Part shown: positions 1,222 through 54,527 of the stretch, piece after piece | Numbering within the stretch: the first letter of the stretch is position 1 | Layout of the letters: every line of letters begins with the position of its first letter | Assembly (NCBI GenBank): GCA_001822065.1 | Contig: MHPJ01000026.1 | Span: 5,281-69,280, forward strand | From: Candidatus Staskawiczbacteria bacterium RIFOXYB1_FULL_37_44 | Lineage (GTDB): Bacteria > Patescibacteriota > Minisyncoccia > Minisyncoccales > Staskawiczbacteraceae | Reading direction: 5' to 3' | Length of the DNA stretch: 64,000 nucleotides | Translations under genes and position numbers: made by a program | Notes under the pieces: generated by a model | The model's input: the letters and a program-made list of their open reading frames with translations, nothing else | Database searches by the model: none | What the model was told of the DNA's origin: nothing

Positions 1222-2781
1222 TTATTTTCTGACTTTTTCAGTTACCCAAAATCCCATATAACGACCAAGCGCCAAGCGTATTTGAGCGTCTAAAGCCGGT
1301 AAAGATCCGAACAAAATTAAAGTTACTGGCAAAAATATCCATTGCAAAAAAACAGTGGATTTTTTAAACCATCTCAAATACCATTTCATTGTTTTTGGAA
1401 CTGGCGGGAGGAGCCAAGTGCTCAAAATTGCCGACACAAACATTCCCACCATTGAAATGGTCATAATTTGGCTGGTTAAAATTGGCAAGTTAAAAGATAA
1501 AACCGTAAAGTTGAATTTTTTTCCGCCCAAAAGTATCGGCAGCCAGCCTAATAAAAACAATAAAATAGCCGCCGTAGCCCAAGACCAAAATCCGTCTAAA
1601 ATTGTGTAAAGATGCCCGATTTTTTCCCGCAGAGATATTTTCTTATTATTTAAAAAACCAAACATCATATATGGAATTTCGGCTACGCCCCATGCCCAGC
1701 GCTTTTGCTGTTTGTACTGGTTTATTATTGTCCGCCATAAATTTTTTGCCATAACAGCGTCCATTGAAGCCAAATAATACATTGGAACTACCCGGTAATT
1801 TCCGTCATAATTTAAGTATGCTTTCCAAAAAATTCGCGAATCATCCATAACCACATTAAACGGATATCCCACCTCAAAAAAAACTTTGCCTGGCGTTGAA
1901 TGCGAAGAATAAGTAGTAAGCTTTTCCGATCTCTCCTGTTGTATCATTTGCCAAAAAGTATTTGAAGTTGAAACCACGCGCGCAAAAGCTGAAGCTGACC
2001 AAATATTATTGTTGTAAACCGGCACTGGCTGGTAGCTGGTATTTTCGGGATTTTCTTCTGTCAAATAGTGCCATGTTAAGCAAGAGAAATATTGTGGGAA
2101 AACTTTTGTATCAATATCAAAAGTTGAAACCAAGATATTTTCGTAAGGAATTTTTAATTTATCAACAATCTTTTCTTTTACTTCTCTGCCCGCAAAAGCA
2201 GTGTTTGATCCTTTTCCAGCAATTTCGCCTTTTGAATTTTCAGGATGAATTGAAATCAAAAATTTAAAAAAACTTCCGGAATATTTTTTGGCAACAGCTC
2301 TTGCCTGTTTTTCAAATTTTTCTCCGGCGCGTTCTTCAACTGCCAAAACCACTATCATTTTTTCTTTTGGATATTCGGATTTAATTATTGATTCTATGCT
2401 TTCTTCAATAATTTCTTGCGACTCTTTATATGTTGGCAGAATAATTATGTGGCAAATATTTTTCCACTTCGGCCTGCCGGAGCCTTGGCGAAGGTGGCGC
2501 AACTCCGCCAGCCAATTTATTTTCATATTTTTTTTAACCCTTAAATAACCGAAAATCTGGTGCATTGAAAAATAAAATATTCTGAAAAGATAGTAAAAAC
2601 AAAAACAGATAATAAATATTGCCACCCAGGAAGGCTCGATCCAAGAAAAAACAAAAACACTAAAAAGTGTGCCCAAACTCAGAATTGCCGGAATCATTTC
2701 AAAAAACCTATACAACCACCTCTCTTTACGGTTTTTTATGTCGTTGGCTTTTGAGATATTTAAATACTCGCTCTTTTCCAT
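1222..2781 (-). CDS. membrane glycosyltransferase family 2 (start trimmed to MEKSEYLN)
   Basis: Multi-TM N-terminus and a GT2-like core (IIILPTYKESQEI...). The longer listed ORF runs through the tRNA-Glu gene, so its N-terminus is rejected. Contains an in-frame family F GC-rich insert at about 2463-2497. Confidence 0.6.
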   Translation of the reverse strand: MEKSEYLNISKANDIKNRKERWLYRFFEMIPAILSLGTLFSVFVFSWIEPSWVAIFIICFCFYYLFRIFYFSMHQIFGYLRVKKNMKINWLAELRHLRQGSGRPKWKNICHIIILPTYKESQEIIEESIESIIKSEYPKEKMIVVLAVEERAGEKFEKQARAVAKKYSGSFFKFLISIHPENSKGEIAGKGSNTAFAGREVKEKIVDKLKIPYENILVSTFDIDTKVFPQYFSCLTWHYLTEENPENTSYQPVPVYNNNIWSASAFARVVSTSNTFWQMIQQERSEKLTTYSSHSTPGKVFFEVGYPFNVVMDDSRIFWKAYLNYDGNYRVVPMYYLASMDAVMAKNLWRTIINQYKQQKRWAWGVAEIPYMMFGFLNNKKISLREKIGHLYTILDGFWSWATAAILLFLLGWLPILLGGKKFNFTVLSFNLPILTSQIMTISMVGMFVSAILSTWLLPPVPKTMKWYLRWFKKSTVFLQWIFLPVTLILFGSLPALDAQIRLALGRYMGFWVTEKVRK

Positions 2782-2783
2782 AG

Positions 2784-2858
2784 TGGCCCCAACCGGATTT
2801 GAACCGGTGTTCTTGGCTTGAAAAGCCAGTGTACTAGACCAGGCTATACGATGGGGCC
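2784..2858 (-). tRNA. tRNA-Glu (anticodon UUC)
   Basis: Reverse complement folds as a cloverleaf: acceptor GGCCCCA/TGGGGCC, anticodon loop TTTTCAA, T-loop TTCAAAT, discriminator A, no encoded CCA. Confidence 0.8.
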
Positions 2859-2918
2859 GGATATTTTTTACTCTATCACAAAATTGATTTTTTTCAAGTT
2901 TTAGGTTAAAAACAACAT

Positions 2919-4070
2919 ATGAAAATACTTGCAATAGAAACATCTTGCGATGATACCGGAGTGGCAATTTTAGAAGTATCGAACCCGCCTTCGCAAAGTT
3001 TCGGCGAGGCAAGGCCCGTTTTTAGCGTTTTATCAAATAAAATTGCTTCGCAAATTGAAATTGGAAAAAAATACGGAGGAGTTTATCCGATGATGGCAAA
3101 AAGAGAGCATGAAAAAAATTTGGCGCCAACTTTACAGACAGCATTAAAAGAAGCAAAAGTAATAGAAAAAGGTATAAACTTAATTGCGGTTACAAACGGG
3201 CCGGGGCTGGAGCCTTGTTTGTGGGTTGGAGTAAATTTTGCAAAAGATTTGGCAAAAAAATGGAATATTCCAATAGTTCCTGTAAATCACATCGAGTCCC
3301 ACATCTTGGTAAACTTACTGTCATTGCGAGGAGGACAGCAGTCCGACGTGGCAATCCAGTTCCCAGCAATCGCACTTGTTGTAAGCGGCGGGCACACACA
3401 ATTAATTTTGGTTGAAAAAATAAAAAAATATAAAATTCTTGGCGAAACAAGAGATGATGCGGCCGGAGAATGTTTTGATAAATGCGCAAAAATTTTAGGA
3501 TTGGAATATCCGGGTGGTCCAATTATTTCCCAGCTCGCCTCAAACGCTGTCATTCCCAGCTTGACTGGGAATCCAGAGTCCGTGCACAAACCCCTAGATT
3601 CCCGCTTTCGCGGGAATGACATACATCTTCCCAGACCAATGCTTAACACAAAAGATTATGATTTTAGTTTCTCCGGTTTAAAAACCGCCGTTCTGTATCA
3701 CCACAAAAAACAAGATGAAAAAACACAGAAATCAAAAAAATATATTGCAGAAATGGCAGCAGAAATACAGCAAGCCATAATTGATGTTTTGCTAAAAAAA
3801 ACAATAAAAGCCGCAAAAGATTATAAAGTAAAATCAATAATTCTGGGCGGAGGCGTTTCAGCCAACACAGAACTTCGCAAACAATTTCAGTCTGCCGCAT
3901 ATCGTCATTGCAAGGGCGAAGCCCGAAGCAATCTACGCCTAATTTATCCTCCGACAGATTTAAGCACAGATAACGCAGTAATGACCGCCATCACCGGCTA
4001 TTTCCATCGCAATAAAAAAACCGCCTGGCGCAAACTCAAAGCTGACGCTAATTTACGAATCGGAGAATAA
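2919..4070 (+). CDS. tsaD: tRNA N6-adenosine threonylcarbamoyltransferase TsaD (Kae1/YgjD family) carrying three in-frame repeat-derived insertions
   Basis: MKILAIETSCDDTGVAI, VSGGHT and SGGV motifs. About 45 aa longer than typical; the extra segments map onto family A/B repeats at 3318-3358, 3547-3623 and 3903-3933. Confidence 0.85.
   Translation: MKILAIETSCDDTGVAILEVSNPPSQSFGEARPVFSVLSNKIASQIEIGKKYGGVYPMMAKREHEKNLAPTLQTALKEAKVIEKGINLIAVTNGPGLEPCLWVGVNFAKDLAKKWNIPIVPVNHIESHILVNLLSLRGGQQSDVAIQFPAIALVVSGGHTQLILVEKIKKYKILGETRDDAAGECFDKCAKILGLEYPGGPIISQLASNAVIPSLTGNPESVHKPLDSRFRGNDIHLPRPMLNTKDYDFSFSGLKTAVLYHHKKQDEKTQKSKKYIAEMAAEIQQAIIDVLLKKTIKAAKDYKVKSIILGGGVSANTELRKQFQSAAYRHCKGEARSNLRLIYPPTDLSTDNAVMTAITGYFHRNKKTAWRKLKADANLRIGE
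3318..3358. repeat. family B half-element inside tsaD, in frame (encodes SLRGGQQSDVAIQ)
   Basis: GTCATTGCGAGGAGG...GACGTGGCAATCCAG. Confidence 0.8.
3547..3623. repeat. composite family A-variant plus A element inside tsaD, in frame (encodes ...SLTGNPESVHKPLDSRFRGNDIH)
   Basis: GTCATTCCCAGCTTGACTGGGAATCCAGAGT followed by CTAGATTCCCGCTTTCGCGGGAATGACA. Confidence 0.8.
3903..3933. repeat. family B-like element inside tsaD, in frame (encodes YRHCKGEARSN)
   Basis: CGTCATTGCAAGGGCGAAGCCCGAAGCAATC. Confidence 0.6.
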
Positions 4071-4096
4071 ATGCTAAAATTATAAAATAATAAACT

Positions 4097-6211
4097 ATGG
4101 AATTGCCCTCGCAATATAATGCAAAAGATGTAGAGGATAAAATTTATAAACTCTGGGAAGAGAGCGGTTTTTTTAATCCCGATAATTTACCTATCAATAA
4201 AATTCGAAATTCGAAATTAAAAATTCGAAATTTCTGTATTATAATGCCTCCAGCAAACGCCAACGGAAATCTGCACGCAGGACATGCTTTGGTTATGACG
4301 ATTGAAGACATTATGACCCGATATAAAAGAATGCGCGGATTTAAAACTTTATGGCTTCCTGGGCTAGATCATGCCGGTTTTGAAACTCAAGTTGTTTACG
4401 AAAAAAAACTTGAAAAAGAAGGAAGATCTCGCTTTCAAATTGAACCTGAACAACTTTACAAAGAAATTTTTGAATTTACAGAAAATAACAAAAAAAACAT
4501 CAAAAACCATGTTAAAAAAATGGGAGCCAGTTGTGACTGGTCCCGTGAAAAATTTACATTGGACAAAGATATTATAAAAGTTGTATATGAAACTTTTGAA
4601 AAATTAAAAAAAGACAAATTAGTTTACAGGGGTAAAAAAATAATCAATTGGTGTCCAAAACACCAAACTTCCCTTTCAGATCTAGAAACCAGCGACACGG
4701 AAAAAACAGACAAATTTTATTATTTAAAATATGGCCCCTTTACAATTGCCACAGCCAGGCCCGAAACAAAATTTGGCGACAAATATGTTGTAATGCATCC
4801 AAAAGATAAAAGATACAAAGATTACACGCATGGCCAAAAAATAGAACTGGAATGGATAAACGGTAAAATTACTGCAACAATTATAAAAGACGAGGCTATT
4901 GATATAGATTTTGGAACCGGAGTTATGACAATTACTCCGTGGCACGACGCAACCGATTTTGAAATTGCTGAAAGGCACAATTTGGATAAAGAGCAAATTA
5001 TAGATTTTTATGGAAAACTTTTGCCAATTGCCGAAGAATTTTCGGGAATGAAAATTTTAGAAGCCCGGGCAAAAATTATTGAAAAACTTCAGTCAAAAGG
5101 CTTGGTTGAAAAAATTGAAGAAAATTACAAACACATTGTTAAAACTTGCTACAAATGCAATTCTTTAATAGAACCTCAAATAAAAGAGCAGTGGTTTTTA
5201 AAAATGAAACCCTTGGCAGCGCCTGCCATAAAAGCAATTGAAAAAAACCAAATAAAATTTATTCCAAGCCACTACAAAAAGATTGCCATGCATTGGCTGA
5301 AAAATATTATTGATTGGAACATTTCACGGCAAATTGTTTGGGGAATTCCTATTCCCGGAGATGAAGAAGGCCAAGTTTTTGACACGTGGTTTTCTTCCGG
5401 ACAATGGCCATATGCTACACTAAAAACAACAGGAAAAAATGATTTTAAAACTTTTTTTCCAACAGATGTTATGGAAACCGGCGGCGATATAATTTTTTTC
5501 TGGGTCTCAAGAATGATTATGCTTTCGCTTTACACAACAAAAAAAATTCCTTTTAAAAATGTTTATTTGCACGGGATGGTTTTAGACGCCAAAGGCCAAA
5601 AAATGTCTAAAAGCAAAGGTAACGTAATAAACCCCTTAGAACTAGCAGAAAAATATGGCGCTGATGCTTTGCGCATGGGATTGGTGGTTGGGAATACTCC
5701 CGGCACTTCCCTGCCGCTGGATGAAAATAAAATAAAAGGCTATAGAAATTTTGCCAATAAAATTTGGAACGCGTCACGGTTTGTTTTGCAGCAAACCGCG
5801 GAAGTGTCATTGCGAGGAGGGAGCGAAGCGACTGACGTGGCAATCCAGAGTAATAGATTGCCACGTCGCTCCGCTCCTCGCAATGACAGACTAACAAAAA
5901 AAGATAAGAGAATATTGAACGATTTTAAAAAACAAGCAAAAGAAATTACAAAAGATATGGACAATTACAGGTTTTATTCTGCCGCTGAAAAAATTTATCA
6001 TTATTTTTGGCACACATTCTGCGACAAAATTATTGAAGACAGTAAAAAGGGAGAAGTTTCGCAAGCAACGCTTTTGGAAATTTTGACAGATTGTTTAAAA
6101 ATACTCCATCCATTTATGCCCTTTATAACCGAAGAAATCTATCAGCAGTTGCCTCCGCCAGCTGGCGGAAAAAAACAAAAGTGTTTAATGATTGAAAAAT
6201 GGATTTTGTAA
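4097..6211 (+). CDS. valS: class I aminoacyl-tRNA synthetase, ValS-like (valyl-tRNA synthetase)
   Basis: PPANANGNLHAGHA (HIGH-type) and KMSKSKGNV (KMSKS) motifs. Also carries in-frame inserts: TTCGAAA heptamer repeats at 4199-4233, family B at 5805-5888, and a CCGCCAGCTGGCGG palindrome at 6155-6168. Confidence 0.6.
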   Translation: MELPSQYNAKDVEDKIYKLWEESGFFNPDNLPINKIRNSKLKIRNFCIIMPPANANGNLHAGHALVMTIEDIMTRYKRMRGFKTLWLPGLDHAGFETQVVYEKKLEKEGRSRFQIEPEQLYKEIFEFTENNKKNIKNHVKKMGASCDWSREKFTLDKDIIKVVYETFEKLKKDKLVYRGKKIINWCPKHQTSLSDLETSDTEKTDKFYYLKYGPFTIATARPETKFGDKYVVMHPKDKRYKDYTHGQKIELEWINGKITATIIKDEAIDIDFGTGVMTITPWHDATDFEIAERHNLDKEQIIDFYGKLLPIAEEFSGMKILEARAKIIEKLQSKGLVEKIEENYKHIVKTCYKCNSLIEPQIKEQWFLKMKPLAAPAIKAIEKNQIKFIPSHYKKIAMHWLKNIIDWNISRQIVWGIPIPGDEEGQVFDTWFSSGQWPYATLKTTGKNDFKTFFPTDVMETGGDIIFFWVSRMIMLSLYTTKKIPFKNVYLHGMVLDAKGQKMSKSKGNVINPLELAEKYGADALRMGLVVGNTPGTSLPLDENKIKGYRNFANKIWNASRFVLQQTAEVSLRGGSEATDVAIQSNRLPRRSAPRNDRLTKKDKRILNDFKKQAKEITKDMDNYRFYSAAEKIYHYFWHTFCDKIIEDSKKGEVSQATLLEILTDCLKILHPFMPFITEEIYQQLPPPAGGKKQKCLMIEKWIL
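4199..4233. repeat. tandem ATTCGAA heptamer repeats in frame in valS (encode RNSKLKIRN)
   Basis: Copies of the TTCGAA palindrome; the same repeat sits inside murE at 28269-28298. Confidence 0.7.
5805..5888. repeat. family B full palindromic element (84 bp), in frame in valS (encodes SLRGGSEATDVAIQSNRLPRRSAPRNDR)
   Basis: Long inverted repeat GTCATTGCGAGGAGGGAGCGAAGCGACTGACGTGGCAATC ... GATTGCCACGTCGCTCCGCTCCTCGCAATGAC. 84 bp equals 28 codons. Confidence 0.9.
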
Positions 6212-6936
6212 TAATACTTTACATAATTTTTGGCATACTCCCTTCTTTAGCTTGGCTTTCCTATTATTTAAGGAAAGACGCGCACCCTGAACCCAAGGGA
6301 ATGATTTTAAAAATATTCTTATGGGGCGCGCTGATAACCGTGCCGGTGTTTTTTGTGCAAATTGGGCTTTCGTATTTGCTTGGAAAAATTAATCTAAGCC
6401 CTTTGTTAAATTCTTTAATATATTGGTTTTTAGTGATTGCTTTTTCCGAAGAATTTTTTAAATTTCTGGTAATAAAATTTCGCGTAATAAACAGCCCGCA
6501 CTTGGACGAACCATTAGATATTATGCTTTATATGGTTATTGCCGCTCTTGGCTTTGCCGCCTTAGAAAACATTCTTTATTTATTTGCGCCAATAGGCGAA
6601 ATGTCTTTTAACCAGCTAATTGATCGCACTTTAATTATAAGTTTTATAAGATTTATAGGGGCGACTTTTTTGCACACTTTATGCTCGGCGGTTGTTGGGT
6701 ATTCATTGGCTATTTCTTTTTGCCAGGCAAAAAGAAAATATGCGCCCATTGCAATTGGTTTAATTACAGCTACCCTCTTGCACGGAGCCTATGATTTTTC
6801 TATAATGACATTAGACGGGTACGCAAAATTTTTAATTCCCGTAATTATTATTATAACTCTTGCTGTTTTAGTTTTTTCAGGGTTTGACAAACTCAAAAAA
6901 ATGAAAAGCACATGCAAGTTAAATTTAATTAAATAA
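6199..6936 (+). CDS. PrsW/CPBP-type intramembrane metalloprotease family membrane protein
   Basis: Multi-TM with EEFFKF (EExxK), FLHTLCSA and HGAYDF motifs. Confidence 0.5.
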   Translation: MDFVIILYIIFGILPSLAWLSYYLRKDAHPEPKGMILKIFLWGALITVPVFFVQIGLSYLLGKINLSPLLNSLIYWFLVIAFSEEFFKFLVIKFRVINSPHLDEPLDIMLYMVIAALGFAALENILYLFAPIGEMSFNQLIDRTLIISFIRFIGATFLHTLCSAVVGYSLAISFCQAKRKYAPIAIGLITATLLHGAYDFSIMTLDGYAKFLIPVIIIITLAVLVFSGFDKLKKMKSTCKLNLIK

Positions 6937-6942
6937 AATAAT

Positions 6943-7368
6943 ATGGCAAAAAAAATATCCGCCCAAGGCGGACCCGCCTCGGGCGGGAAAGCAGAAGAAA
7001 AAAAAGAAATGCCGGTTGGTTCGGGAGAAATTTTCGACCAAGAAGGAGAATTAGTTGTTGATGTTTTTGAAACCGGCGCGGAGTTTGTTGTTTCTTCGGC
7101 AATTGCCGGAGTGCAAATTAAAGATTTGGACATATCCTTGGAAAAAGATATGATGGTAATTAAAGGAACTCGTTGCGACCCGCACGAGCATAATGATAAA
7201 AAATATTTTTACCAGGAATGTTATTGGGGCCCTTTTTCCAGAAAAATTATATTGCCTGAAAATATAGACATAGACAAGGCAGACGCGCAAATGGACAAAG
7301 GAGTTTTAACAATTAAAATCCCCAAAAACGAAACAGCCCCAAATAAAATCGGCATAAAAGTAAGCTAA
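6943..7368 (+). CDS. Hsp20/alpha-crystallin family small heat-shock protein
   Basis: ACD-like segments VDVFETGAEFVV...VIKG...GVLTIKIPK. Confidence 0.6.
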   Translation: MAKKISAQGGPASGGKAEEKKEMPVGSGEIFDQEGELVVDVFETGAEFVVSSAIAGVQIKDLDISLEKDMMVIKGTRCDPHEHNDKKYFYQECYWGPFSRKIILPENIDIDKADAQMDKGVLTIKIPKNETAPNKIGIKVS

Positions 7369-7377
7369 TTTAAAAAT

Positions 7378-7734: not shown

Positions 7735-7807
7735 ACTTTTAAGTTTATAAATAAAAAATCACTATTAAAATTCAGTGATTTTTTATTACTATCCAAAATT
7801 TTTATTG

Positions 7808-7889
7808 TGCCGGCGGTGGGACTCGAACCCACAACTCTTGCGAGATTAGTTCCTAAAACTAACGCGTATTCCAATTCCGCCACGCCGGC
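7808..7889 (-). tRNA. tRNA-Leu (anticodon UAG), type II with long variable arm
   Basis: Reverse complement: acceptor GCCGGCG/CGCCGGC, anticodon loop TTTAGGA, T-arm GTGGGTTCGAGTCCCAC; 82 nt. Confidence 0.8.
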
Positions 7890-7931: not shown

Positions 7932-8215
7932 GGGATTGACAATGCATACTCTTATATGCTATAATAAATTTAGTACAGGTTTGAGTTGCCAAATGTCTTC
8001 CAAACGATTTTGTTTATGGTTTGCGGGCGAAAATTTGGAATTATGAGGAGGTTTATCAACGAAGTGATAAGCCGACGAGTAATTGCAAATTTACAGCCCA
8101 AAACATTACAAAAGAGTTGAAGGTCATTTGGCAATTCAAACCGTTGGCTCATTGAAAATGGTTGAATTTCTATTTCAGCACAAGGAGTGCAGGGACAGCT
8201 GTTTTACGGTGAGCT
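7932..8215 (+). promoter_or_regulatory. promoter (TTGACA/TATAAT) plus conserved leader, copy 1; interrupted by a roughly 135-bp insertion bounded by TTGCCAAATG/CATTTGGCAA
   Basis: Shares several near-identical motif blocks (listed under the copy-2 entry) with the region upstream of the 10331 gene. Confidence 0.55.
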
Positions 8216-8998
8216 TTGGAGGGTTTAGAGATGCGTAATTTCTATCTGATGGTTGTGGTGGCGATGGTGGTTTGCTTGGCGGGTTGCAATTGGTTCGGTC
8301 CAGACGCGGCGCATGACCAGTCCGTCGCCAGGGAAGCTCGGGCCAACGAAAGGGCGCAGATTGACGTAGCTATCGCCGAGGATCTCCGCCAAAAGGAAGC
8401 GGCCCGGAAATCAGCCGAGGAATATCGGCGGACTCATGAAACGCTGGAAGAGGTGGCGCTCGTGCAAGGAACGCATGCCACCAACTCCTGTTCCATCCAG
8501 ATCGTTCGGAAAGACACCCCAATCAACGTACGCGCCGGTAAATGTGCCGACATTTACGAAACTGGGGAGGCCGTCCAAAAAAGGCTTGCGGGCCAAGCTG
8601 TGCTTGACGATGTTCGGCTAAAGGGCTTGCAGGACGAGATGGCCCGAGCCGAAACGGTTCGTGAGGAAAAACAGCGGGAAGTCGACGACCTCAAGGCAAC
8701 GATTGGCGAAATGAAAAAGTCTTTGGCCGTCGCCGAAGCACAAGCCAAGGCCGATCGACAGAACGCCGAGCTCGCTAATGAGATTGCCCTACAAAGGCAA
8801 GTCCTTGGCGCAGCACAAACCAATCTAGCCGAGAAAACCGCGGCGCTCGCTAAGAAAGAGGCGGAGATGGCCGCCGTAAACGCCAAACTGGACAAAATCC
8901 AGAAAGACGTGAACGCGCCGATGCGGGTTTCCGTTAAGGACACCGACGCATGCGGTCGGGAAACAAACTGGACAATGGATCTCCGGAAGGCCAACTAG
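8216..8998 (+). CDS. high-GC lipoprotein-signal coiled-coil protein (hypothetical)
   Basis: GC content is far above the surrounding DNA; LAGC lipobox; long coiled coil; terminator hairpin plus T-run at about 9027-9072. Confidence 0.5.
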   Translation: MEGLEMRNFYLMVVVAMVVCLAGCNWFGPDAAHDQSVAREARANERAQIDVAIAEDLRQKEAARKSAEEYRRTHETLEEVALVQGTHATNSCSIQIVRKDTPINVRAGKCADIYETGEAVQKRLAGQAVLDDVRLKGLQDEMARAETVREEKQREVDDLKATIGEMKKSLAVAEAQAKADRQNAELANEIALQRQVLGAAQTNLAEKTAALAKKEAEMAAVNAKLDKIQKDVNAPMRVSVKDTDACGRETNWTMDLRKAN

Positions 8999-9073
8999 GT
9001 CATCGCAGTTGCGCAACGCGCGCAAGACGGATAGGCCCGAGGTTCTCAATTTGAGAATCCCGGGTCTCTTTTT

Positions 9074-26034: not shown

Positions 26035-26117
26035 TGTCATTGCGAGGAGCCCGCAGGCGACGTGGCAATCTAGAGTATGTGATAAAACTCTGGATTCCCG
26101 CTTTCGCGGGAATGACA
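26035..26117. repeat. composite family B half plus family A element filling the uvrB-ruvA divergent intergenic region
   Basis: TGTCATTGCGAGGAGCCCGCAGGCGACGTGGCAATCTAGAGT ... CTCTGGATTCCCGCTTTCGCGGGAATGACACC. Confidence 0.9.
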
Positions 26118-43625: not shown

Positions 43626-44843
43626 TTATTCAGATTTTTCTTCGGTTTCTTCTTTTGGCTCTTCTTGCTCTTCCGGTTCTTCCGGAACATCGGCGGTTTT
43701 AATGTCTATTTTCCAGCCGGTGAGTTGGGCGGCCAAACGCACATTTCTGCCGTCTTTGCCAATTGCCAAGCTCAATTGGTCCGCTGGCACAAAAACAGTT
43801 GCCGTATTTTTCTCCTCAACTTTTACTTCAATAACTTTTGCAGGGGCCAAAGCATTGGTAATAAATTTTTCCGGCTTTTCCTCAAAAGAAATTACATCAA
43901 TTTTTTCTCCTCCCAATTCGTTAATTACTGCCATAATGCGAGTTCCTCTTTGGCCAACGCAAGCTCCAATCGGGTCAACGCCTTCTTCATTGGAAACAAC
44001 CGCAATTTTTGTGCGAAAACCCGGCTCTCTGGCAATTGCTTTTATGACAACGGAACCCGAAGCAATTTCAGGGACTTCCAGCTCAAATAATTTTGAAATT
44101 AATTTTGGATAAGCGCGCGACAAAATAATCACCGAGCCTTTTGGGCTGTCTTCAACTTTTAAAATGTAAAGTTTTAAGCGCTGCCCGGGTCTGTAAAATT
44201 CGCCAGGAATTTGCTCTTCTCTGTTTAAAAGCCCTAAAGTTTTTCCAATATCCACAAACACGGTGTGACCTTCAACCCTTTGCACAATTCCCGAAACAAT
44301 TTCTCCTTCTTTTGATTTATATTCCGAAGAAATAACTTCCTTTTCCGCCTCGCGGATTTTTTGCAAAATAACCTGCTTTGCTGTTTGAGCGGCAATTCTG
44401 CCATAATTCTGCTTTGAAACTAAAGAAATTTCAATTTCTTCTCCTGCTTTGGCCTTTGGAAAATCTTTTTTGGCATCTGCCAGCATTATATGTTTTTCTT
44501 CGTTAAAAACATATTTCCTTGCCTCGCCGGAGCCTTCGGCGGAGGCGGGTTCGTCAAAGGGCACTTGCTTGTTGGTCTTCATTTCCTCAAGTTCTTCGTC
44601 GGTGTAAAGCATGCTGTTATCTACAACCAATTTTACTTGCCAAAACTTAACATCGCCCGAAACCGGGTTGAATTTTGCCTTTATTTTCTGGCCTTTTTCT
44701 CCATAGTCTTTTTTGTAGGCCGTGGCGATTGCGGCCTCAATTGTTTCTATTACTTTTTCCGGCTGTATGCCTCTTTCCTCTGCAATTTGAGCCAAAGCCC
44801 TTTGAAATGATTTAATGTCCACTTTTGTGAGCGAGGCGAACAA
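43626..44843 (-). CDS. nusA: transcription termination/antitermination factor NusA
   Basis: N-terminal domain, S1 and KH domains. In-frame family F insert at 44517-44555 (PASAEGSGEAR). Confidence 0.9.
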   Translation of the reverse strand: MFASLTKVDIKSFQRALAQIAEERGIQPEKVIETIEAAIATAYKKDYGEKGQKIKAKFNPVSGDVKFWQVKLVVDNSMLYTDEELEEMKTNKQVPFDEPASAEGSGEARKYVFNEEKHIMLADAKKDFPKAKAGEEIEISLVSKQNYGRIAAQTAKQVILQKIREAEKEVISSEYKSKEGEIVSGIVQRVEGHTVFVDIGKTLGLLNREEQIPGEFYRPGQRLKLYILKVEDSPKGSVIILSRAYPKLISKLFELEVPEIASGSVVIKAIAREPGFRTKIAVVSNEEGVDPIGACVGQRGTRIMAVINELGGEKIDVISFEEKPEKFITNALAPAKVIEVKVEEKNTATVFVPADQLSLAIGKDGRNVRLAAQLTGWKIDIKTADVPEEPEEQEEPKEETEEKSE

Positions 44844-47873: not shown

Positions 47874-47878
47874 ATTTT

Positions 47879-48310: not shown

Positions 48311-48313
48311 GGT

Positions 48314-48781
48314 TTAAATAATTTTTAATTCTTTTAACCAGTCATACCAAATTGGTTCTATGCCTGGTGATTTTTCCCAATCCTTATTTGAAATATTTCC
48401 TTTTTTGTACTCCTCGGTTTTTTTAGCTAATTTATTTATTAAATCTTTTGAAAAAAATTTTGCTTGTTTTGTTTCATCTTCGCTTCTTTTTATTTCTCCC
48501 TCGGCCTCGATTTCATAAATTTTCCAATAGTGCCATGTTCCATTTTCCCTACGACACGGATTTTCCTTCCGGCCTTCAGCAGTAAGTTTCATATTTTTTA
48601 CAGACAATCCAACTTCTTCCTTTAATTCCCGCTTCGCCGCATCTTCAAAAGAAATGTCTGTGTCAACATGGCCTGCTGGCGGAGCAAATCCAAATGGAAA
48701 TCTCTTTCTTTCAACAAGTAAAATATTTTCACCGCTCCAAACCAACATTCCTACACTTGTGTGGTCACATTGTTTTATCAT
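48314..48781 (-). CDS. NUDIX hydrolase (second)
   Basis: NUDIX box AGHVDTDISFEDAAKRELKEEVGL. Confidence 0.75.
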   Translation of the reverse strand: MIKQCDHTSVGMLVWSGENILLVERKRFPFGFAPPAGHVDTDISFEDAAKRELKEEVGLSVKNMKLTAEGRKENPCRRENGTWHYWKIYEIEAEGEIKRSEDETKQAKFFSKDLINKLAKKTEEYKKGNISNKDWEKSPGIEPIWYDWLKELKII

Positions 48782-48810
48782 ATTTCAACGCATTATTTAT
48801 TACACGGACA

Positions 48811-48849
48811 CTGGATTGCCACGCCCCGTGCGCGGGGCTCGCAATGACA
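48811..48849. repeat. family B right-half element with internal GCCCCGTGCGCGGGGC hairpin
   Basis: CTGGATTGCCACGCCCCGTGCGCGGGGCTCGCAATGACA. Confidence 0.8.
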
Positions 48850-49152
48850 CTAAGTTAAAACTAAGATAAAGCTGGTGTTTTGGGAGGATTTTAGGGAATG
48901 CGCAATATTTTTTTCCATTTTGATAAATACGCCCGGTAGCATTTCAATATTTTCTCCGGCATAAGTAAAAACGCCCTTTCCCTCAATTACATAAACAAAA
49001 CCCTGTTTTGTTGAAGTATGCTCTGAAATTTCTGTGCCTTCTGCCATAGAAAACAAAGTAATATCAAGCTTTTCGCTTTTCTCAATTACTTTGCTCAAAA
49101 TTCCTCCGGCAGAATATGAAATATTTTCTTTTAAATTCATTTGCTTTGTCAT
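48850..49152 (-). CDS. cupin-domain small protein
   Basis: Double-stranded beta-helix pattern (G..EH..T..GFVYVIEGKG). Confidence 0.5.
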   Translation of the reverse strand: MTKQMNLKENISYSAGGILSKVIEKSEKLDITLFSMAEGTEISEHTSTKQGFVYVIEGKGVFTYAGENIEMLPGVFIKMEKNIAHSLKSSQNTSFILVLT

Positions 49153-49265
49153 TCCGGGCTCGACCCGGAATCTATAACTTTGTTTATTCCACGGACTCTG
49201 GATTCCCGCTTTCGCGGGAATGACACACCTGTAGCGGTTTTTTGCCTCGAGGCAAAAAACCGCTA
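49147..49265. repeat. cluster of family C variant (GTCATTCCGGGCTCGACCCGGAATC), family A copy (49198-49226) and family D palindrome (49232-49265)
   Basis: Three palindromic elements packed between the cupin gene and the ABC transporter gene. Confidence 0.85.
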
Positions 49266-49267
49266 AT

Positions 49268-51160
49268 TTAAAAATTTGTTAGTTTGGCTTCGCCATGATT
49301 TCCTTTCTCCTCATCATTTTCGTCTTCAATTTCTAAATCATCTTCTGATTCTTCGTTATCTGGTGACTTTAAAAATCCGCCGGCTTGCAATTCCCAAAGC
49401 TTCTTATATAGGCTGTTTTCTTTTTCAAGCAAATCCTTATGACTGCCTTGTTCTATAATTTTTCCTTGGTCTATAACTATAATACGATCCATTTTTTGGA
49501 TTGTAGACAGGCGGTGGGCAATTACAATTGTTGTTTTGCCATGCATTAAAGTGCTCAAAGCATCTTGAATTAGCATTTCAGAATGCGAATCTAAGCTTGA
49601 AGTTGCTTCATCAAGCACCAGAACCGGAGCATTTTTCAAAATAGCCCTGGCAATTGCCACCCTTTGGCGCTCGCCTCCTGATAATTTAATTCCGCGTTCT
49701 CCCACAAAAGTATCAAATTTATAGGGCAAATTGGCAATAAAATCGTCGCAGTGTGCCAATTCCGCTGCCCTGGCAATTTCATCCATTGTGGCTCCACGCG
49801 CGCCGTAGGCTATGTTTTCTGCTAATGTACGATGGAATAAAATTGGGTCTTGGGGAACCATTGAAATGTTTTGGCGCAGGCTTTCTTGCGTTGCTTCCGC
49901 AATATCTTGTCCGTCAATTAAAATTTTGCCGGCGGTGGGCGAATACAGCCTCAAAAGCAGCCTTACAAAAGTTGTTTTACCAGCTCCCGACGGCCCGATC
50001 AATGCCACCTTTTCTCCGGGCTTTATTATTAAATTTATATCTCCCAGCACTTTTCTGGTTTCATTAAAATTAAAACTTAAATTCTCAAATTTTATTTCTC
50101 CTGAGCTAAGCTCAAGAGATTTCGCGGCTGGAATATCCACAATTTCATGAGGCAAATTTAAAATTTCCACCATTTCTTTGGCATCGGCATAAGACTGGTA
50201 TGCATATCTTATCACGCGGGTAAACCCCCAAAGCTGGTCAATAAGATTTAAAATGTAAAACTGCAACATAACAAAAACTCCAACTGTAACCAACCCCTGC
50301 TGCCAATATTTTATTGCGTAAAAGAATAAAATAAATTGTATCGCAAATCCCAAAAAAGCCTGCGTTGCTTCCATTATAGAATCCAAATTCCATGCAAAAC
50401 TGGTTACTTTTGCCTGCTCGCCAGTAATTTTTTTATAACCTGTTGATTCAAAATTATAACCGTTAAAAAGCTGGACATTGTTTTGATTTGAAATTGTATC
50501 GGCCAGATAACCCGTTGTTTTTGAATCAATTTCTGCCACCTTGATATCATATTTTAATTTCCACCTTGAAAAAATAATATTAAACAGCAAAAATATTGTC
50601 ACCCAAATAAAAATAATCAAAGTTATCCATTTATTTATAAAAAATACAACTATAAGCACTGAAATAACCCTTACCACCAAAGGCAAAACATCCCAAATTA
50701 GCCTGTCGCTTAAAGTTTCAAACGACCTGGCAAAACGGTTGACTCTCTGCACCAAACTGCCCGCAAAACTGTTAGTAAAAAAACTGTATGAATGTTGCAT
50801 TAAATAGTCGTAAGATTGCTGTTTTAGGCGGGCAATTGCTGTTGGCTGGTAAATATTATTTGCGTAAGTGGCAATTCTGTAGCCAAGCCAAACAACGCCG
50901 TCTAAGACCAAAACTTCCAAAATTATAAAAACCAGTTGGCGGGCAACTTCACCTTTATCTCCCGCGCCGGCGATTACATCAAAAAATTGTTTGTAAAAAA
51001 TCGGCACAATAATTGTTGTAACGCTGGCGGCAACCATTGAAATAAATATAACAAAAAGCCACCACTTTTGCGGTTTTATTCCACGCCAAAAAGCGCGTAA
51101 AACATCTTTAACTTTTACCTCCGGATAAATTATTGATTTTTGCGCTTTTTCTTGTGGCAT
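49268..51160 (-). CDS. ABC transporter, fused permease/ATP-binding (exporter, MsbA-like)
   Basis: 6 TM plus Walker A GPSGAGKTT, signature LSGGERQR, Walker B VLVLDEATS. Confidence 0.85.
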   Translation of the reverse strand: MPQEKAQKSIIYPEVKVKDVLRAFWRGIKPQKWWLFVIFISMVAASVTTIIVPIFYKQFFDVIAGAGDKGEVARQLVFIILEVLVLDGVVWLGYRIATYANNIYQPTAIARLKQQSYDYLMQHSYSFFTNSFAGSLVQRVNRFARSFETLSDRLIWDVLPLVVRVISVLIVVFFINKWITLIIFIWVTIFLLFNIIFSRWKLKYDIKVAEIDSKTTGYLADTISNQNNVQLFNGYNFESTGYKKITGEQAKVTSFAWNLDSIMEATQAFLGFAIQFILFFYAIKYWQQGLVTVGVFVMLQFYILNLIDQLWGFTRVIRYAYQSYADAKEMVEILNLPHEIVDIPAAKSLELSSGEIKFENLSFNFNETRKVLGDINLIIKPGEKVALIGPSGAGKTTFVRLLLRLYSPTAGKILIDGQDIAEATQESLRQNISMVPQDPILFHRTLAENIAYGARGATMDEIARAAELAHCDDFIANLPYKFDTFVGERGIKLSGGERQRVAIARAILKNAPVLVLDEATSSLDSHSEMLIQDALSTLMHGKTTIVIAHRLSTIQKMDRIIVIDQGKIIEQGSHKDLLEKENSLYKKLWELQAGGFLKSPDNEESEDDLEIEDENDEEKGNHGEAKLTNF

Positions 51161-51169
51161 AAAATTTTA

Positions 51170-51772
51170 TTATTCTAAGATTTTAGTCAAATCTTTTTTA
51201 AACTGATTAAAATCCTGAAATACAATGCTTTTTATTCCAAGGGCTTCGGCTGATTTTGTGTTTCTTTCTTTGTCGTCAGTAAATACTGCTTCATCTGCTT
51301 TTACATTTAATTTTTTAAGGGCGTGCTGGTAAATCTTTGGGTTTGGTTTTGATATTTTTAAGTTATATGAGTTCACGACGATATCAAATAAATGATAAAT
51401 TTTAAAAACGTTTTTTATTAGGTTTTCCAGTTCTGAATTATAATTTGATAAAATAGCCGTTTTATATTTCTTTTTTAGTTCCCCTATATAATCTATCATT
51501 TCCGGCCTAACACGCACAGTTGATTTTACCTCAAGAAGAATATCATTTAGTTCTTCCGCCGCCAAATTTATTGACGGCTTGGTTTTTTCATAGAACTCAA
51601 AAATAGTCTCGTATTCGGCAAGGTTAGCTCCATGGTTGTATTCGTCCAGGAGCTTTTCAAGCGAGCCATCCTCAAGTGAGTGTTTGATTTTGTGTTTTTC
51701 GTATATTTCTCTATTTCTGGTAACAATAGGTCCGTCAAAATCAAAAATTATTGCTTTAATTTCATTTTTCAT
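51170..51772 (-). CDS. HAD-superfamily hydrolase
   Basis: DxDG motif IIFDFDGPI. Confidence 0.65.
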   Translation of the reverse strand: MKNEIKAIIFDFDGPIVTRNREIYEKHKIKHSLEDGSLEKLLDEYNHGANLAEYETIFEFYEKTKPSINLAAEELNDILLEVKSTVRVRPEMIDYIGELKKKYKTAILSNYNSELENLIKNVFKIYHLFDIVVNSYNLKISKPNPKIYQHALKKLNVKADEAVFTDDKERNTKSAEALGIKSIVFQDFNQFKKDLTKILE

Positions 51773-52008
51773 AAAAATCTTTTATTCGTGAATGCGTACC
51801 CGGAACTTGATTTCAGATACTTTTCAAAATTGTATGCTTTTGCTTTTTCTAAAAAAGCACAATACCAAATTAATTTGTATGGTCTTTTTGAATCAGAATA
51901 TTTTGCATTGCCAGAATTATGTTCTGCCAAACGCCTTTTTAAATCAGAAGTAACTCCAATATATCTACTTTTATCTTTCTCACTTTGCAAAATATATACG
52001 TAAAACAT
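51769..52008 (-). CDS. GIY-YIG nuclease-domain small protein
   Basis: FYVYILQS...YIGVTSDLKRRLAEHN. Confidence 0.65.
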   Translation of the reverse strand: MFYVYILQSEKDKSRYIGVTSDLKRRLAEHNSGNAKYSDSKRPYKLIWYCAFLEKAKAYNFEKYLKSSSGYAFTNKRFL

Positions 52009-52136
52009 AATTTACAGCCCCACTTCGCAAGGCCACACTACGCCAAGGCTTCGCGTGGCATGCTTCGCGGGACACCACTTCGCTTTAAACTTATCATCTA
52101 TTATTATCGGCTATATTTCAATGGTGCTTGCACCGC

Positions 52137-52156
52137 GTAGCTCTGAGTAATCTCAG
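52137..52156. terminator. perfect hairpin GCTCTGAG-taat-CTCAGAGC adjacent to the tRNA-Ala 3' end
   Basis: 8-bp stem, 4-nt loop. Confidence 0.4.
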
Positions 52157-52163
52157 AGCGAAG

Positions 52164-52237
52164 TGGTGGACCTGGGCGGAATCGGACCGCCGCCTCGTCA
52201 ATGCGAATGACGCATAATACCACTTTACTACAGGCCC
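52164..52237 (-). tRNA. tRNA-Ala (anticodon CGC) with encoded CCA
   Basis: Reverse complement: acceptor GGGCCTG/CAGGTCC with G3:U70, anticodon stem CGTCA/TGACG, loop TTCGCAT, discriminator A, CCA. T-loop is TCCGATT (C at position 55, non-canonical). Confidence 0.65.
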
Positions 52238-52277
52238 GAGCCACATTTTGCTTTCGCAAAAGTGGAATTTTCGATTT

Positions 52278-52685
52278 TCATTTATCAATTTTCAAATATT
52301 TTTCATTTTCCAAATCTTCATTGGCGCAAAAAACAGTGTAGTCAATTAGAATTTCCTCTCCTTTTTCGATATCCCTTACAGCAACATCATTATCTCCAAT
52401 TGTTTTAATATTTGGATTTTTTGAATGGTTTATAAATCTTGTGTCGTCTAAACATAAACAATGCAATCCGTCTTGTTTGTCTTTATATGCATACTTTTTA
52501 ATTTGCCTAAAACTTTCTTTGCTTAATTCTTTTTCCATTTGTTTCCACTGCTCTTCAAAATATTTTGCAATTCCAAAATTATCGTTATTTTTTATAACAA
52601 TTGTTCCTTTTTTAATATCTTCATTGGCAAACAATCCAATGCCTTCAATTTTTGAAACGCCAAGGTTTGTCTTCACTAAAATCAT
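52278..52685 (-). CDS. SET-domain protein (putative protein-lysine methyltransferase)
   Basis: GIGLFANEDIKKGTIV, TRFINHSKNPNI (RFINHSCxPN-type) and GEEILIDY motifs. Confidence 0.6.
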   Translation of the reverse strand: MILVKTNLGVSKIEGIGLFANEDIKKGTIVIKNNDNFGIAKYFEEQWKQMEKELSKESFRQIKKYAYKDKQDGLHCLCLDDTRFINHSKNPNIKTIGDNDVAVRDIEKGEEILIDYTVFCANEDLENEKYLKIDK

Positions 52686-52715
52686 AATTTTTACTTTATG
52701 TTTTATTTGTCATAC

Positions 52716-52744
52716 TCTGGATTCCCGCTTTCGCGGGAATGACA
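52716..52744. repeat. family A element, intergenic (preceded by TGTCATA half)
   Basis: CTCTGGATTCCCGCTTTCGCGGGAATGACA. Confidence 0.9.
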
Positions 52745-52852
52745 CTAATCGTTTTGTTGATGCCGGCAAAACGATAAATTACCATAAAATCTAGCACCAT
52801 TTTGTTGTCGTCAACAAAATGGTATTTACAAATAAATTATTTATTGTATAAT

Positions 52853-52923
52853 TCGGCGCACTCAGAATCGAACTGAGGCCGCAGACTCCCGAAGTCTGCA
52901 TACTACCACTATACGATGCGCCG
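52853..52923 (-). tRNA. tRNA-Pro (anticodon CGG)
   Basis: Reverse complement: C1:G72 acceptor CGGCGCA/TGCGCCG, anticodon stem CAGAC/GTCTG, loop TTCGGGA, T-arm CTCAG/TTCGATT/CTGAG. Confidence 0.75.
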
Positions 52924-53000
52924 CTGATATAAATCTACCTTATTATTTAAAATTAAAAATTTAAAATTGAAAATTCCAGTCCCGCCGCAGCGGGATCTGG

Positions 53001-54527
53001 CTACGTTACCCAATATTTTTGTTTAGTCATTGTGTCTTCTTTGGTTTCAATTTCCGACTTTTCCTGTTTTGACTTTTCAGACAGTTTCTGCAGTTCTTTA
53101 TCGCTTAATTTTCCCAATTTTGCAACCTCTTTTTCCAAAAATTCATTATTGTTCTTTTTTGGATCGTCTAAAACATAACCCAATAGGACATTTAAAATTT
53201 GCCCTATCTTGGGCCCTGGCTTTTCACTCAAAATTTTCATTATGCCCTCCCCGTTTATTTTCAACATTTTAGCAGAAATCGGGTCTTTGGAAACTTTTTC
53301 AATTAAATATTTTAAATGGCGCAGTTTATACGGCTCGGCTTTTGGCACGCCAGATCCAATTCTGTCTGCCTGCCTTACCTGTAATAATTCTTCCATATTT
53401 TCTGGCCCCACATTTTTTACCAGCCTTCTCACAGACGCTTCGCCAACTTCATCAACATTATAATAAAACAAATGAAAACGCACTAATTTTGTAATTTTTT
53501 CAACATTTTTTTTTGGAAATTTCAAACGATTCAAAATTTGAAAAGCCATTTTAGCTCCCACAATTTCATGGTTATAAAATGTTGCGCTTTCGCCCTCGCC
53601 GGTTTTCACGCGGGGCTTAGCAATATCGTGCAGTAAAGCCGCCAGTCTGACGTGCATATTAAAACCTTTTTTGGCAGCGTATTCTAAAGCTTTTACCGCA
53701 TGCCAATAACAGTCGTAAATGTGATGTTTGCTTTGCAAAACTCCGTAATTATCCAGCAATTCAGGCACAATATATTTTAGCAAGTCCAACTCGCGCAAAA
53801 GCTCTATGCCATGAGCCGGGCCGGTTGCCCCGCTATCGTCCGCAGACGATTTTGCGGGGTCAGCCATAATTATTTTTACAAATTCATCGCGGATTCTTTC
53901 TTTTGAAATAGCTTCCAGCCAAATTGCATTTTTTTTAATTGCCTCTTTAGTTTTCTCTTCAATTTCAAAACCCAAAATTACAGCAAACCTTACTGCCCTT
54001 AACATTCTTAGCGCGTCTTCATTAAAACGTTCTTCCGCGTTTCCCACTGTCCTGATTATCTTATTTTTTAAATCTTTTTGGCCATCAAATAAATCAACAA
54101 TTTTTTTCTTTGCATCCATGGCAATCGCATTTATTGTAAAATCGCGTCTAGCTAAGTCGTCTTCCAGCTTTTCAGCATATTTTACTTGGTCAGGATGGCG
54201 CTTGTCAGAATATTTTGCTTCTAACCTGTAAGTTGTAATTTCTATCTCCCTTGGCTCGCCGAAGCCCTTGCTCGCCTCGCTGGAGCTTTGGCGAAGCGGG
54301 GCGAAGGCGGCGACTGTCCTTACAGTAACTGTCAAAAAATTATTCTCATAAAAACTGCCTGGAAATACTTTTTGAATTTCTTCTGGTTTTGCGTTTGTGG
54401 TTACGTCCCAGTCATTTGGCTCTTGCCCCAGCAAAAAATCACGCGCGCATCCGCCTACAATAAAAGCCTCAAAACCGGCTTTTTCCAGTTTTTCTATAAC
54501 ATTTTTTACTTCTTTTGGAATTATCAT
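53001..54527 (-). CDS. cca: CCA-adding enzyme / tRNA nucleotidyltransferase with HD domain
   Basis: GGCARD...DWD polymerase-beta NT motif plus HD domain (LLHDIAKP). In-frame family F insert at about 54251-54310 (SSSEASKGFGEPRE). Confidence 0.8.
   Translation of the reverse strand: MIIPKEVKNVIEKLEKAGFEAFIVGGCARDFLLGQEPNDWDVTTNAKPEEIQKVFPGSFYENNFLTVTVRTVAAFAPLRQSSSEASKGFGEPREIEITTYRLEAKYSDKRHPDQVKYAEKLEDDLARRDFTINAIAMDAKKKIVDLFDGQKDLKNKIIRTVGNAEERFNEDALRMLRAVRFAVILGFEIEEKTKEAIKKNAIWLEAISKERIRDEFVKIIMADPAKSSADDSGATGPAHGIELLRELDLLKYIVPELLDNYGVLQSKHHIYDCYWHAVKALEYAAKKGFNMHVRLAALLHDIAKPRVKTGEGESATFYNHEIVGAKMAFQILNRLKFPKKNVEKITKLVRFHLFYYNVDEVGEASVRRLVKNVGPENMEELLQVRQADRIGSGVPKAEPYKLRHLKYLIEKVSKDPISAKMLKINGEGIMKILSEKPGPKIGQILNVLLGYVLDDPKKNNNEFLEKEVAKLGKLSDKELQKLSEKSKQEKSEIETKEDTMTKQKYWVT

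Follow-up and report, generated by a model that had tools for sequence, protein, structure and literature searches.

The Rickettsia palindromic elements (RPEs; Ogata et al. 2000, reviewed in PMC2229807) are units of 105–146 bp that form long stem-loops, have terminal inverted repeats of 12 bp and add 30–50 residues to their host proteins. Here, a 33-nt repeat of 11 codons is described in a stretch of 64,000 nucleotides (64 kb; hereafter, the window) from Candidatus Staskawiczbacteria bacterium RIFOXYB1_FULL_37_44 (GenBank assembly GCA_001822065.1; contig MHPJ01000026.1, positions 5,281 to 69,280). As with the RPEs and the 'protein-coding palindromic repeats' of Wolbachia (PMC2229807), the host genome is reduced and AT-rich, and many conserved housekeeping genes, unrelated to one another, contain one and the same unit in frame. 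It shares with the RPEs lineage-specific sites tolerated by the fold of the host protein, additional copies in non-coding, intergenic DNA, and the lack of a known transposase. RPE copies lie next to or in RNA genes, and copies of the 33-nt repeat were found near tRNA and 5S rRNA genes. Unlike the RPEs, the repeat adds only 11 residues, has a weak and short hairpin, is GC-rich in an AT-rich genome, belongs to a candidate phyla radiation (CPR)/Parcubacteria host, and lies inside genes in one frame in ~90% of cases; a length of ~105–146 bp, a long stem-loop and inverted repeats of ~12 bp are all absent from the 33-nt unit.

Yeast mitochondrial GC clusters have a preferred target, which is duplicated, and an in-frame insertion in var1 is one classic case. 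These clusters, reported as mobile (PMC4478555), resemble the 33-nt repeat as short GC-rich palindromic units in a very AT-rich genome with presence/absence polymorphism; they are organellar and mostly intergenic, whereas the present repeat is bacterial, mainly coding and without visible duplication. Palindromic repetitive elements with coding potential are also recorded for Methanocaldococcus jannaschii (Suyama et al. 2005, cited in PMC2229807); they are likened to the present repeat through that citation only, and differ in their archaeal host, sequence and size. Repetitive extragenic palindromic sequences (REPs) are imperfect palindromes of 20–40 bp, commonly with G-T pairs in the stem, and include GTAG- and CGTC-tagged families; they are mainly extragenic, downstream of genes and often linked to REP-associated tyrosine transposases (RAYTs), and some lie wholly within open reading frames (ORFs), often at protein termini and in replication or repair genes (PMC3733652). 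MITEs (miniature inverted-repeat transposable elements), with terminal inverted repeats, target duplication and a length of about 100–400 bp, are not matched by a unit of 33 nt that has no duplication at the five filled/empty junctions compared. The RPEs and intragenic REPs are the nearest analogues, and the tolerance of selfish repeats inside conserved genes is a phenomenon already known. The present repeat stands apart in its size, its GC-richness in an AT-rich genome, its host group, the absence of a long stem-loop or tag, and its placement almost exclusively in coding DNA in a single frame; the literature searched, the coverage of which was incomplete, contained no account of elements of this kind in CPR/Patescibacteria.

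The window has a GC content of 36.6%. Two of its proteins, the CCA-adding enzyme and NusA, have identical counterparts in Candidatus Staskawiczbacteria metagenome-assembled genomes (MAGs) from Rifle groundwater (GCA_001820475.1 and GCA_001820435.1), and an identical CCA-adding enzyme or NusA is present in independent JGI and ENA assemblies; hence, the sequence is not an assembly oddity. Judged from its sequence, the source organism is a CPR/Parcubacteria bacterium.

Alignment of the copies defined the repeat unit as CCCGCC-NNN-GCY-GAA-RGC-TYY-GGC-GAG-GCR-ARG (33 nt, 11 codons), which is translated as PA-x-A-E-G/S-S/F-G-E-A-K/R. A degenerate 21-mer, GAAGGCTYYGGCGAGGCRAGG, matches gyrA and nusA with no mismatches and cca with three, and also matches tsaD on the plus strand at 2994–3014; against these four matches in the window, none was obtained in 100 dinucleotide-preserving shuffles. 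The initial annotation had reported four GC-rich patches, in gyrA, nusA, cca and a family-2 glycosyltransferase (GT2) gene, and all four were recovered at about the positions given, in minus-strand genes and with the peptides reported. The consensus proposed for them fits gyrA and nusA exactly and cca with three mismatches, but the GT2 patch falls outside three mismatches, and a fifth copy, in tsaD, had been overlooked. The proposed core, GCCGAAGGCTTCGGC, does not occur exactly anywhere in the window, where its closest match is nusA with one mismatch, and it understates the unit, which is longer (33 nt) and begins with CCCGCC.

The element of ~33 nt is carried in the window by gyrA, nusA and tsaD, the copies in gyrA and nusA being canonical. 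In gyrA (12785–16504, minus strand, 1239 aa) it occupies 16451–16483 on the minus strand (CCCGCCGACACCGAAGGCTTTGGCGAGGCGAGG; residues 8–18, including TEGFGEAR) in the N-terminal tail and is 33 nt long. This gene also has an insert of ~400 residues, starting with GCFTKDT and ending with VHNS, that looks like an intein. In nusA (43626–44843, minus strand, 405 aa) the element at 44517–44549 on the minus strand (CCCGCCTCCGCCGAAGGCTCCGGCGAGGCAAGG) encodes PASAEGSGEAR, residues 99–109, in a variable loop of the N-terminal domain. The tsaD copy (2984–3014, plus strand; CCCGCCTTCGCAAAGTTTCGGCGAGGCAAGG, NPPSQSFGEARP), in the first β-hairpin turn of the protein encoded by 2919–4070 on the plus strand (383 aa), is only 31 nt long; with 2 nt missing, the 5' half is read out of the usual frame, and the peptide is NPPSQSFGEAR. 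The cca gene (53001–54527, minus strand, 508 aa) has a 66-nt patch at 54249–54314 on the minus strand (VAAFAPLRQSSSEASKGFGEPR, including SKGFGEPR) in a β-hairpin of the head domain. It had been described as an expanded copy, and is instead a composite with a partial duplication, in which the beginning of an element is followed by one complete unit that lacks 1 nt, and this in turn by a repeat of the 3' half.

The GT2 patch (2464–2499, minus strand; CGCCACCTTCGCCAAGGCTCCGGCAGGCCGAAGTGG = RHLRQGSGRPKW, including RQGSGRPK) was assigned to a different, sister family. It has no match to the main 21-mer consensus at up to three mismatches, and matches the sister-family profile, CCCGCCTTCGCCAAGGCTWCGGCGGGCARG, with E = 0.001. 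The sister family is read in two frames, as PAFAKA(S/T)AGK or, shifted, as LRQG(F/Y)GGQ, and the GT2 patch uses the LRQGxG frame; hence it cannot stand as a copy of the same element, as had been supposed. The patch lies in a variable loop of the protein (1222–2781, minus strand, 519 aa; the ORF as listed extends through tRNA-Glu at 2783–2858). The length of this loop varies among 120 orthologues, several of which have other GC-rich repeat peptides there, such as LRQGYG, LRLGSGQ and PSTGSGQA.

Comparison with relatives showed lineage-specific gain. The GyrA of relative L106 (L numbers denote loci in the comparison sets), 88.6% identical over the N-terminal 132 aa, reads MAEDKNEKEDKKAKPKAQ and lacks exactly 11 codons (33 nt). 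In all 26 relatives compared for cca (57–77% identity), the segment is missing and a short AT-rich hairpin loop, T-GSKKPELA-E, is present; the window protein is 14 residues (42 nt) longer, and the patch corresponds to a gap in the solved Planococcus enzyme (PDB 6ibp). The tsaD patch is missing in 118 of 120 homologues, the remaining two being identical or truncated copies of the window protein; a homologue with 74% identity has VKGDKKSPIF at the site, and Thermotoga maritima TsaD (6nak) has a 13-aa gap. From these alignments, the gains in gyrA, cca and tsaD are judged to be lineage-specific, and to this extent the proposal of in-frame insertion held.

It did not hold for nusA, where the element replaces a pre-existing loop. 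All Staskawiczbacteria orthologues have a loop of near-equal length at this site, mostly DEARAGEEAPKK with 44–60% GC, and the element is common only to the closest relatives (88–92% identity). DNA alignment of the orthologues thus rejected a clean insertion in favour of replacement of the resident loop. T. maritima NusA (1hh2) lacks the whole 41-aa segment around the element, so that in NusA, TsaD and the CCA-adding enzyme alike the element falls at gaps in solved distant orthologues (1hh2, 6nak and 6ibp), in which the motif is not kept; mapping on structures thereby bore out the expectation of lineage specificity. In an AlphaFold (AF2) model of NusA of moderate quality, the element is coil, with a pLDDT (predicted local distance difference test) score below 50 at residues 98–106. 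In relative L206, the NusA of which is 89% identical, an integrase-core (rve) gene (304–1602) lies directly upstream of nusA, and synteny around nusA is broken.

Clean pairs of filled and empty sites were also found in other genes. Loops in the nucleotide-binding domains of ABC transporters are longer by 10 and 11 aa than those of more than 10 orthologues each, and a C-terminal tail of NusA is longer by 11 aa, between GT and DGEA. Several gains replace resident residues (nusA, cca and the ABC loops), and empty NusA sites already hold GGCGAAGC or GGCGAGGC. No target-site duplication was seen at the junctions in gyrA, the NusA tail, the NusA loop and the ABC loop of L041; the ABC loop of L016 was compared at the protein level only.

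The repeat is not confined to the window. In a set of related DNA comprising the window and 80 loci anchored on nusA (81 loci, 1.27 Mb in total; the NusA-anchored matches in the genome collection exclude the window's own species, the best being 87%), a profile built from the window copies found the unit in other species at other sites. These include C-terminal tails of NusA (L035, L011, L016, L027 and L041), the NusA loop (L027 and L041) and an ABC transporter (L016 and L041). A scan of metagenome contigs by exact pattern gave identical 29-mers in at least 119 independent stretches. Among the 80 metagenome loci listed, about 30 (29 of 81 matches) are CPR-like contigs of high AT content; these have in common the 33-nt patch alone, between unrelated flanks. 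The 1.27 Mb contain 11 copies at E ≤ 1e-3, or ~0.9 per 100 kb, confined to 6 of the 81 loci; three of them lie in the window. L041 has two copies in 14 kb plus three weaker matches to the first, three-copy profile. Such a patchy distribution is what a repeat expanding in some lineages would give.

These data bear on the possibility that linker codons, GC-rich and of low complexity, merely resemble one another by chance, or that the copies come from faulty assembly. There are ~50 other GC-rich patches in the window, and the host regions are of low complexity, as this explanation would have it. The failure of all 100 shuffles to match, the recurrence of identical 29-mers in at least 119 metagenome stretches and the agreement of independent NCBI, JGI and ENA assemblies refute it, and its probability is considered negligible.

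The hosts are unrelated. Pfam identified among them ribosomal proteins S9, S16, L7/L12, L19 and L25, NusA, GyrB, class I aminoacyl-tRNA synthetases, HSP20, ABC transporters, a P-type ATPase, DegT, a tRNA-binding domain, VirD4-like ATPases, FtsK, RecA, a Mur ligase and a DsbD-HMA protein. Within them, the element is found in N- and C-terminal tails, inter-domain linkers and hairpin turns; most copies are at most about 50 residues from a terminus, or in a linker.

Strand and frame are nearly constant. Open frames of 240 nt or more enclose 52 of the 55 distinct AT-rich copies; at least 43 of these 52 follow the sense strand and are read as GGC|GAG|GC (p = 2.6e-25 against an expectation of 1/6). 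The nine exceptions include several that arise from the rule of taking the longest ORF, among them tsaD and a tRNA-binding protein confirmed by Pfam. Among loci that were not picked by the motif, 10 of 11 copies share this strand and frame, and the eleventh is tsaD, again an artefact of the ORF heuristic. Non-coding copies were found in an intergenic position upstream of a tRNA gene (L162/L157/L201) and ~10 nt upstream of 5S rRNA (L142); none was seen inside an RNA gene among the copies examined.

Near-constant strand and frame, and the exposed tails, linkers and loops that serve as sites, could be explained if the peptide PA-x-AEG-x-GEAK were a short linear motif recruited repeatedly onto housekeeping proteins, for instance as a tag for docking, processing or degradation. 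Its recurrence on the same proteins across lineages (NusA loop or tail, L7/L12 hinge, S9, S16 and VirD4-like proteins) would agree with this. However, the codons point to the DNA. A codon-blind search for the peptide in the 1.27 Mb found it only with DNA of the GGC GAG GC type, apart from one weak match with GGC GAA, possibly a decayed copy, so that the usual AT-rich codons almost never encode the peptide. The codons CCC, GCC, GGC and GAG within the element never drift to the AT-rich synonyms preferred by the genome, whereas variation between copies is mostly non-synonymous and concentrated in three codons (TCC/TTC/GAC/GTC/GCC/TAC; GGC/AGC; TCC/TTC/TTT/TCT/TAC). In the tsaD and L027 copies, the 5' half is read in another frame; non-coding DNA contains intact copies; for each host, the element is missing from most relatives; and the same DNA is present in non-coding palindromes of Acidobacteriota-like contigs (see below). 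Recruitment of the peptide is therefore regarded as quite unlikely. Frame, codon retention, non-synonymous variation and non-coding copies together indicate a repeat at the DNA level rather than a selected peptide. The suggestion that the shared peptide stems from a shared DNA element and not from homology was thus upheld, given unrelated hosts and GC-rich codons (GGC GAG GC...) throughout, bar the one weak match.

The element had also been called a near-perfect palindrome. The consensus can form a hairpin, GCCUC(C)GCYGAA-RGC-UUCGGCGAGGC, of 11 bp with one bulge, in which 88.5% of the alignment cells pair. Nevertheless, the pairing is imperfect, and the window copies fold with -11 to -17 kcal/mol, no better than shuffled sequences (z -0.1 to -1.6; for the 33-nt unit, z is -0.1 to -1.8). 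Among 50 aligned copies, most metagenome members of which were picked by a pattern that fixes the 3' arm, variants break pairs 10–29, 11–28 and 17–23 in 14, 11 and 26 copies, respectively, and no pair is altered on both sides. Rfam recognised only tRNAs and tmRNA in the window and gave no match on the soil elements described below. Having neither an Rfam match nor compensatory pairs, the repeat does not qualify as a structured RNA family. A significant or selected hairpin was rejected for the Parcubacteria copies, which fold like shuffles and show no covariation, and the hairpin is not regarded as a selected feature there.

The same results bear on a cis-acting signal under selection, either an mRNA hairpin for pausing, RNase action or stability, or a DNA sequence for protein binding or uptake. 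Nearly all copies are on the transcribed sense strand, and the blocks CCCGCC and GGCGAGGC are conserved where the peptide varies, as a signal of this kind would predict. In addition, third codon positions within the orthologous nusA copy are less diverged (2/12) than those in the rest of the gene (174/386), although this is a single test. Opposed to this are the missing covariation, the frequent stem-breaking variants, the hairpin energies equal to those of shuffles and the lack of an Rfam match, as well as the arbitrary position of the element within genes (N-tail, C-tail or internal). The copies are also too sparse and patchy for uptake or general regulation. In particular, a DNA uptake sequence (uptake signal sequence or DUS type, ~1 per kb and even) was rejected on density, since there is only ~0.9 copy per 100 kb and 75 of the 81 related loci are empty. 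A selected cis-acting signal is accordingly held to be very improbable.

Hairpins of a different strength were found outside the CPR-like contigs. About 50 of the metagenome matches are in GC-rich (55–70%) soil contigs, where the identical 29-nt module forms the 5' part of a ~100-nt palindrome, GTAGTGTCCGCCTT-CCCGCCTCCGCCGAAGGCTTCGGCGAGGC-TCGCCGAAGCGCGCTTCGCGCGCGAAGGCGGCAGGCGGAC(ACTAC). These palindromes fold strongly (z -4 to -6) and carry the GTAG tag of REP sequences; examples are L096 6056–6190, L105 1068–1170, L166 196–330 and two copies in L099. They are often paired with a second GTAG hairpin, in the manner of REP doublets forming hairpins (REPIN-like). Proteins of L099 cluster at ≥90% identity with those of Acidobacteriota MAGs, so that at least one soil contig is assigned, by its proteins, to the Acidobacteriota. 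Since a match over 24 positions cannot be due to chance, the soil and Parcubacteria contexts are related. Among plasmid records there was only one weak Ralstonia match to the soil element, and the viral contig collection gave no exact match that would speak for carriage by phage.

The soil relatives give weight to another explanation, in which the repeat is a mini-REP or MITE-like element that a single-strand transposase of RAYT or IS200/IS605-like type, recognising the hairpin, moves in trans. Insertion would be random, and the single strand and frame would be due to nothing but selection against the five other readings. GTAG REPs are proposed RAYT substrates and REPs in genes are documented (PMC3733652); the identical 29-nt module sits in GTAG-tagged ~100-nt soil hairpins, and the 33-nt unit, as an imperfect palindrome with a consensus stem of 11 bp and one bulge (88.5% of cells paired), is REP-like itself, its GC-rich soil relatives being tagged and folding like REP dimers. 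The non-coding copies and the burst-like distribution fit as well. Unlike REPs, however, the 50 aligned Parcubacteria copies have neither a GTAG nor a CGTC tag and are mainly intragenic (52 of 55 inside open frames). No RAYT (Y1 transposase) gene, or any other transposase, was found among the genes of the 64-kb window, and no target duplication in the five comparisons of filled and empty sites (one of them at the protein level). The common D variants break the outer stem uncompensated (14 and 11 of 50 copies), the folds equal those of shuffles, and if insertion were random, only very strong selection could leave 43 or more of 52 copies in a single frame. Mobilisation by a hairpin-recognising enzyme plus selection is thus a serious rival, if on the whole a rather improbable one.

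On balance, the repeat is probably a selfish or neutral, GC-rich and imperfectly palindromic 33-nt unit of Staskawiczbacteria and other Parcubacteria that is translated where tolerated. Copies would have been written into many unrelated genes and translated within the host protein, and would persist only where a small, acidic, unstructured peptide of 11 residues is harmless, as in tails, linkers and β-hairpin turns; the host need not gain any function from it. How copies spread can be proposed only tentatively. Short-patch, microhomology-assisted copying between coding regions, either gene-conversion-like or by template switching, could be responsible, with microhomology provided by triplet-periodic Lys/Glu tracts (GAA/AAA) or by GGCGARGC-like targets. 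Copying of this kind would keep strand and frame automatically, without strong selection, and would account for resident residues often being replaced rather than simply displaced. Codons flanking the copies are 41% Lys/Glu, compared with 19% in the host ORFs, and the 50 aligned Parcubacteria copies have RAA as the 5' flank and RAAGGA as the 3' flank. Homology-assisted copying is favoured because residues are replaced, the flanks are rich in Lys/Glu, and empty NusA sites contain GGCGAAGC or GGCGAGGC already.

Several observations weigh against a selfish or neutral repeat. Neither terminal inverted repeats nor target-site duplication were seen at the junctions compared, and no associated transposase was seen among the window genes by Pfam, none of the ~60 genes in the 64 kb being a transposase next to a copy; mobility therefore follows only from the distribution. 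Toxicity of the other five frames does not obviously force the strict frame and strand, since some of these frames look harmless and the sister family gets by in either of two. The low third-position divergence in nusA could reflect constraint on DNA or RNA rather than neutrality; DNA-level constraint, or gene conversion, may play a part. Finally, recurrence at the same loops (NusA loop or tail, L7/L12 hinge and TsaD hairpin) could mean function or site preference and not tolerance only.

Further in-frame GC-rich families do occur in the window, as the initial annotation had indicated. A far commoner palindromic repeat, of 24 nt, GATTCCCGCTTTCGCGGGAATGAC, has 10 copies there, 8 of them exact, against 0 expected (1188, 3597, 17086, 23969 on the minus strand, 26093, 28067, 43543, 49201, 52720 and 60612); nine of the 10 are on the plus strand whatever the orientation of the gene. 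It is in frame in two genes, tsaD (LDSRFRGNDIH) and a Mur ligase gene (DSRFRGNDT), and by the ORF listing the other copies appear mostly between ORFs, that at 26093 overlapping the 5' end of the uvrB ORF. A third family, TTGCGAGGAG...GACGTGGCAAT, is found at 3324–3355, 5812–5841, 26036–26071, 48803–48852 and 62042–62078. It is in frame as SLRGGQQSDVAIQ in tsaD and as SLRGGSEATDVAIQ in a class I aminoacyl-tRNA synthetase gene (ORF 4097–6211), and its remaining copies are at or between gene ends. Hence, tsaD has three different GC-rich in-frame patches (2984–3014, 3324–3355 and 3597–3620), each of which is a gap relative to T. maritima TsaD 6nak. In cca, a second and unrelated GC-rich insertion of 12 residues, KSSADDSGATGP, lies at 53801–53849 and is missing in 26 of 26 relatives.

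The N-terminal tail of HSP20 (ORF 6943–7368) has the GC-rich patch SAQGGPASGGK at 6954–6998, and HSP20 of relative L106 has the element PASAESFGEAK in its place; the same tail thus holds different repeat families by lineage. C-terminal tails of NusA in L007–L086 (for example, L009, L010, L021, L026, L048 and L061) are a patchwork that includes SSAKASEDESADSKPKK, NPSTSSGQGAK, PAFAKATAGK and PAGQAGAEAIAGK. This suggests that many GC-rich repeat families populate disordered tails in Parcubacteria. Apart from the repeats, the window has a locally GC-richer stretch at 8000–10100 (43.5%), with an ORF without a Pfam match (8216–8998) and a Fic/DOC gene (9074–10054), which may be foreign DNA.

The genomes of CPR/Patescibacteria are tiny and streamlined, and several GC-rich repeat families are nonetheless tolerated in essential genes of this lineage, with three patches in tsaD and two in cca. 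Scavenging of other cells' DNA is attributed to the ultra-small Parcubacteria. The exact match to REP-type hairpins of Acidobacteriota-like soil contigs raises the question of DNA flow between phyla, and a speculative and doubtful extension is that the 29–33-nt module is one mobile cassette across phyla, present within GTAG-tagged REP-type hairpins in the non-coding DNA of GC-rich soil Acidobacteriota, captured by Parcubacteria and propagated in frame from gene to gene. If true, this would represent transfer of a REP fragment between phyla followed by frame-preserving spread independent of a transposase, and the module would supply essential proteins with 11 residues at a time for their disordered tails and loops, a steady source of new peptide segments in minimal genomes. 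For annotation and phylogenomics, the patches are a warning, as they make unrelated proteins look falsely alike and inflate alignments. Specialists in CPR genomics or bacterial repeats would find of note how strict the frame is, how wide the range of hosts, and the link to Acidobacteriota. The element is a possible example of frame-preserving repeat spread without a transposase. It is also a marker of recent genome dynamics in organisms beyond culture and, as a natural experiment, bears on where core proteins can take in 11 additional residues in their loops and tails.

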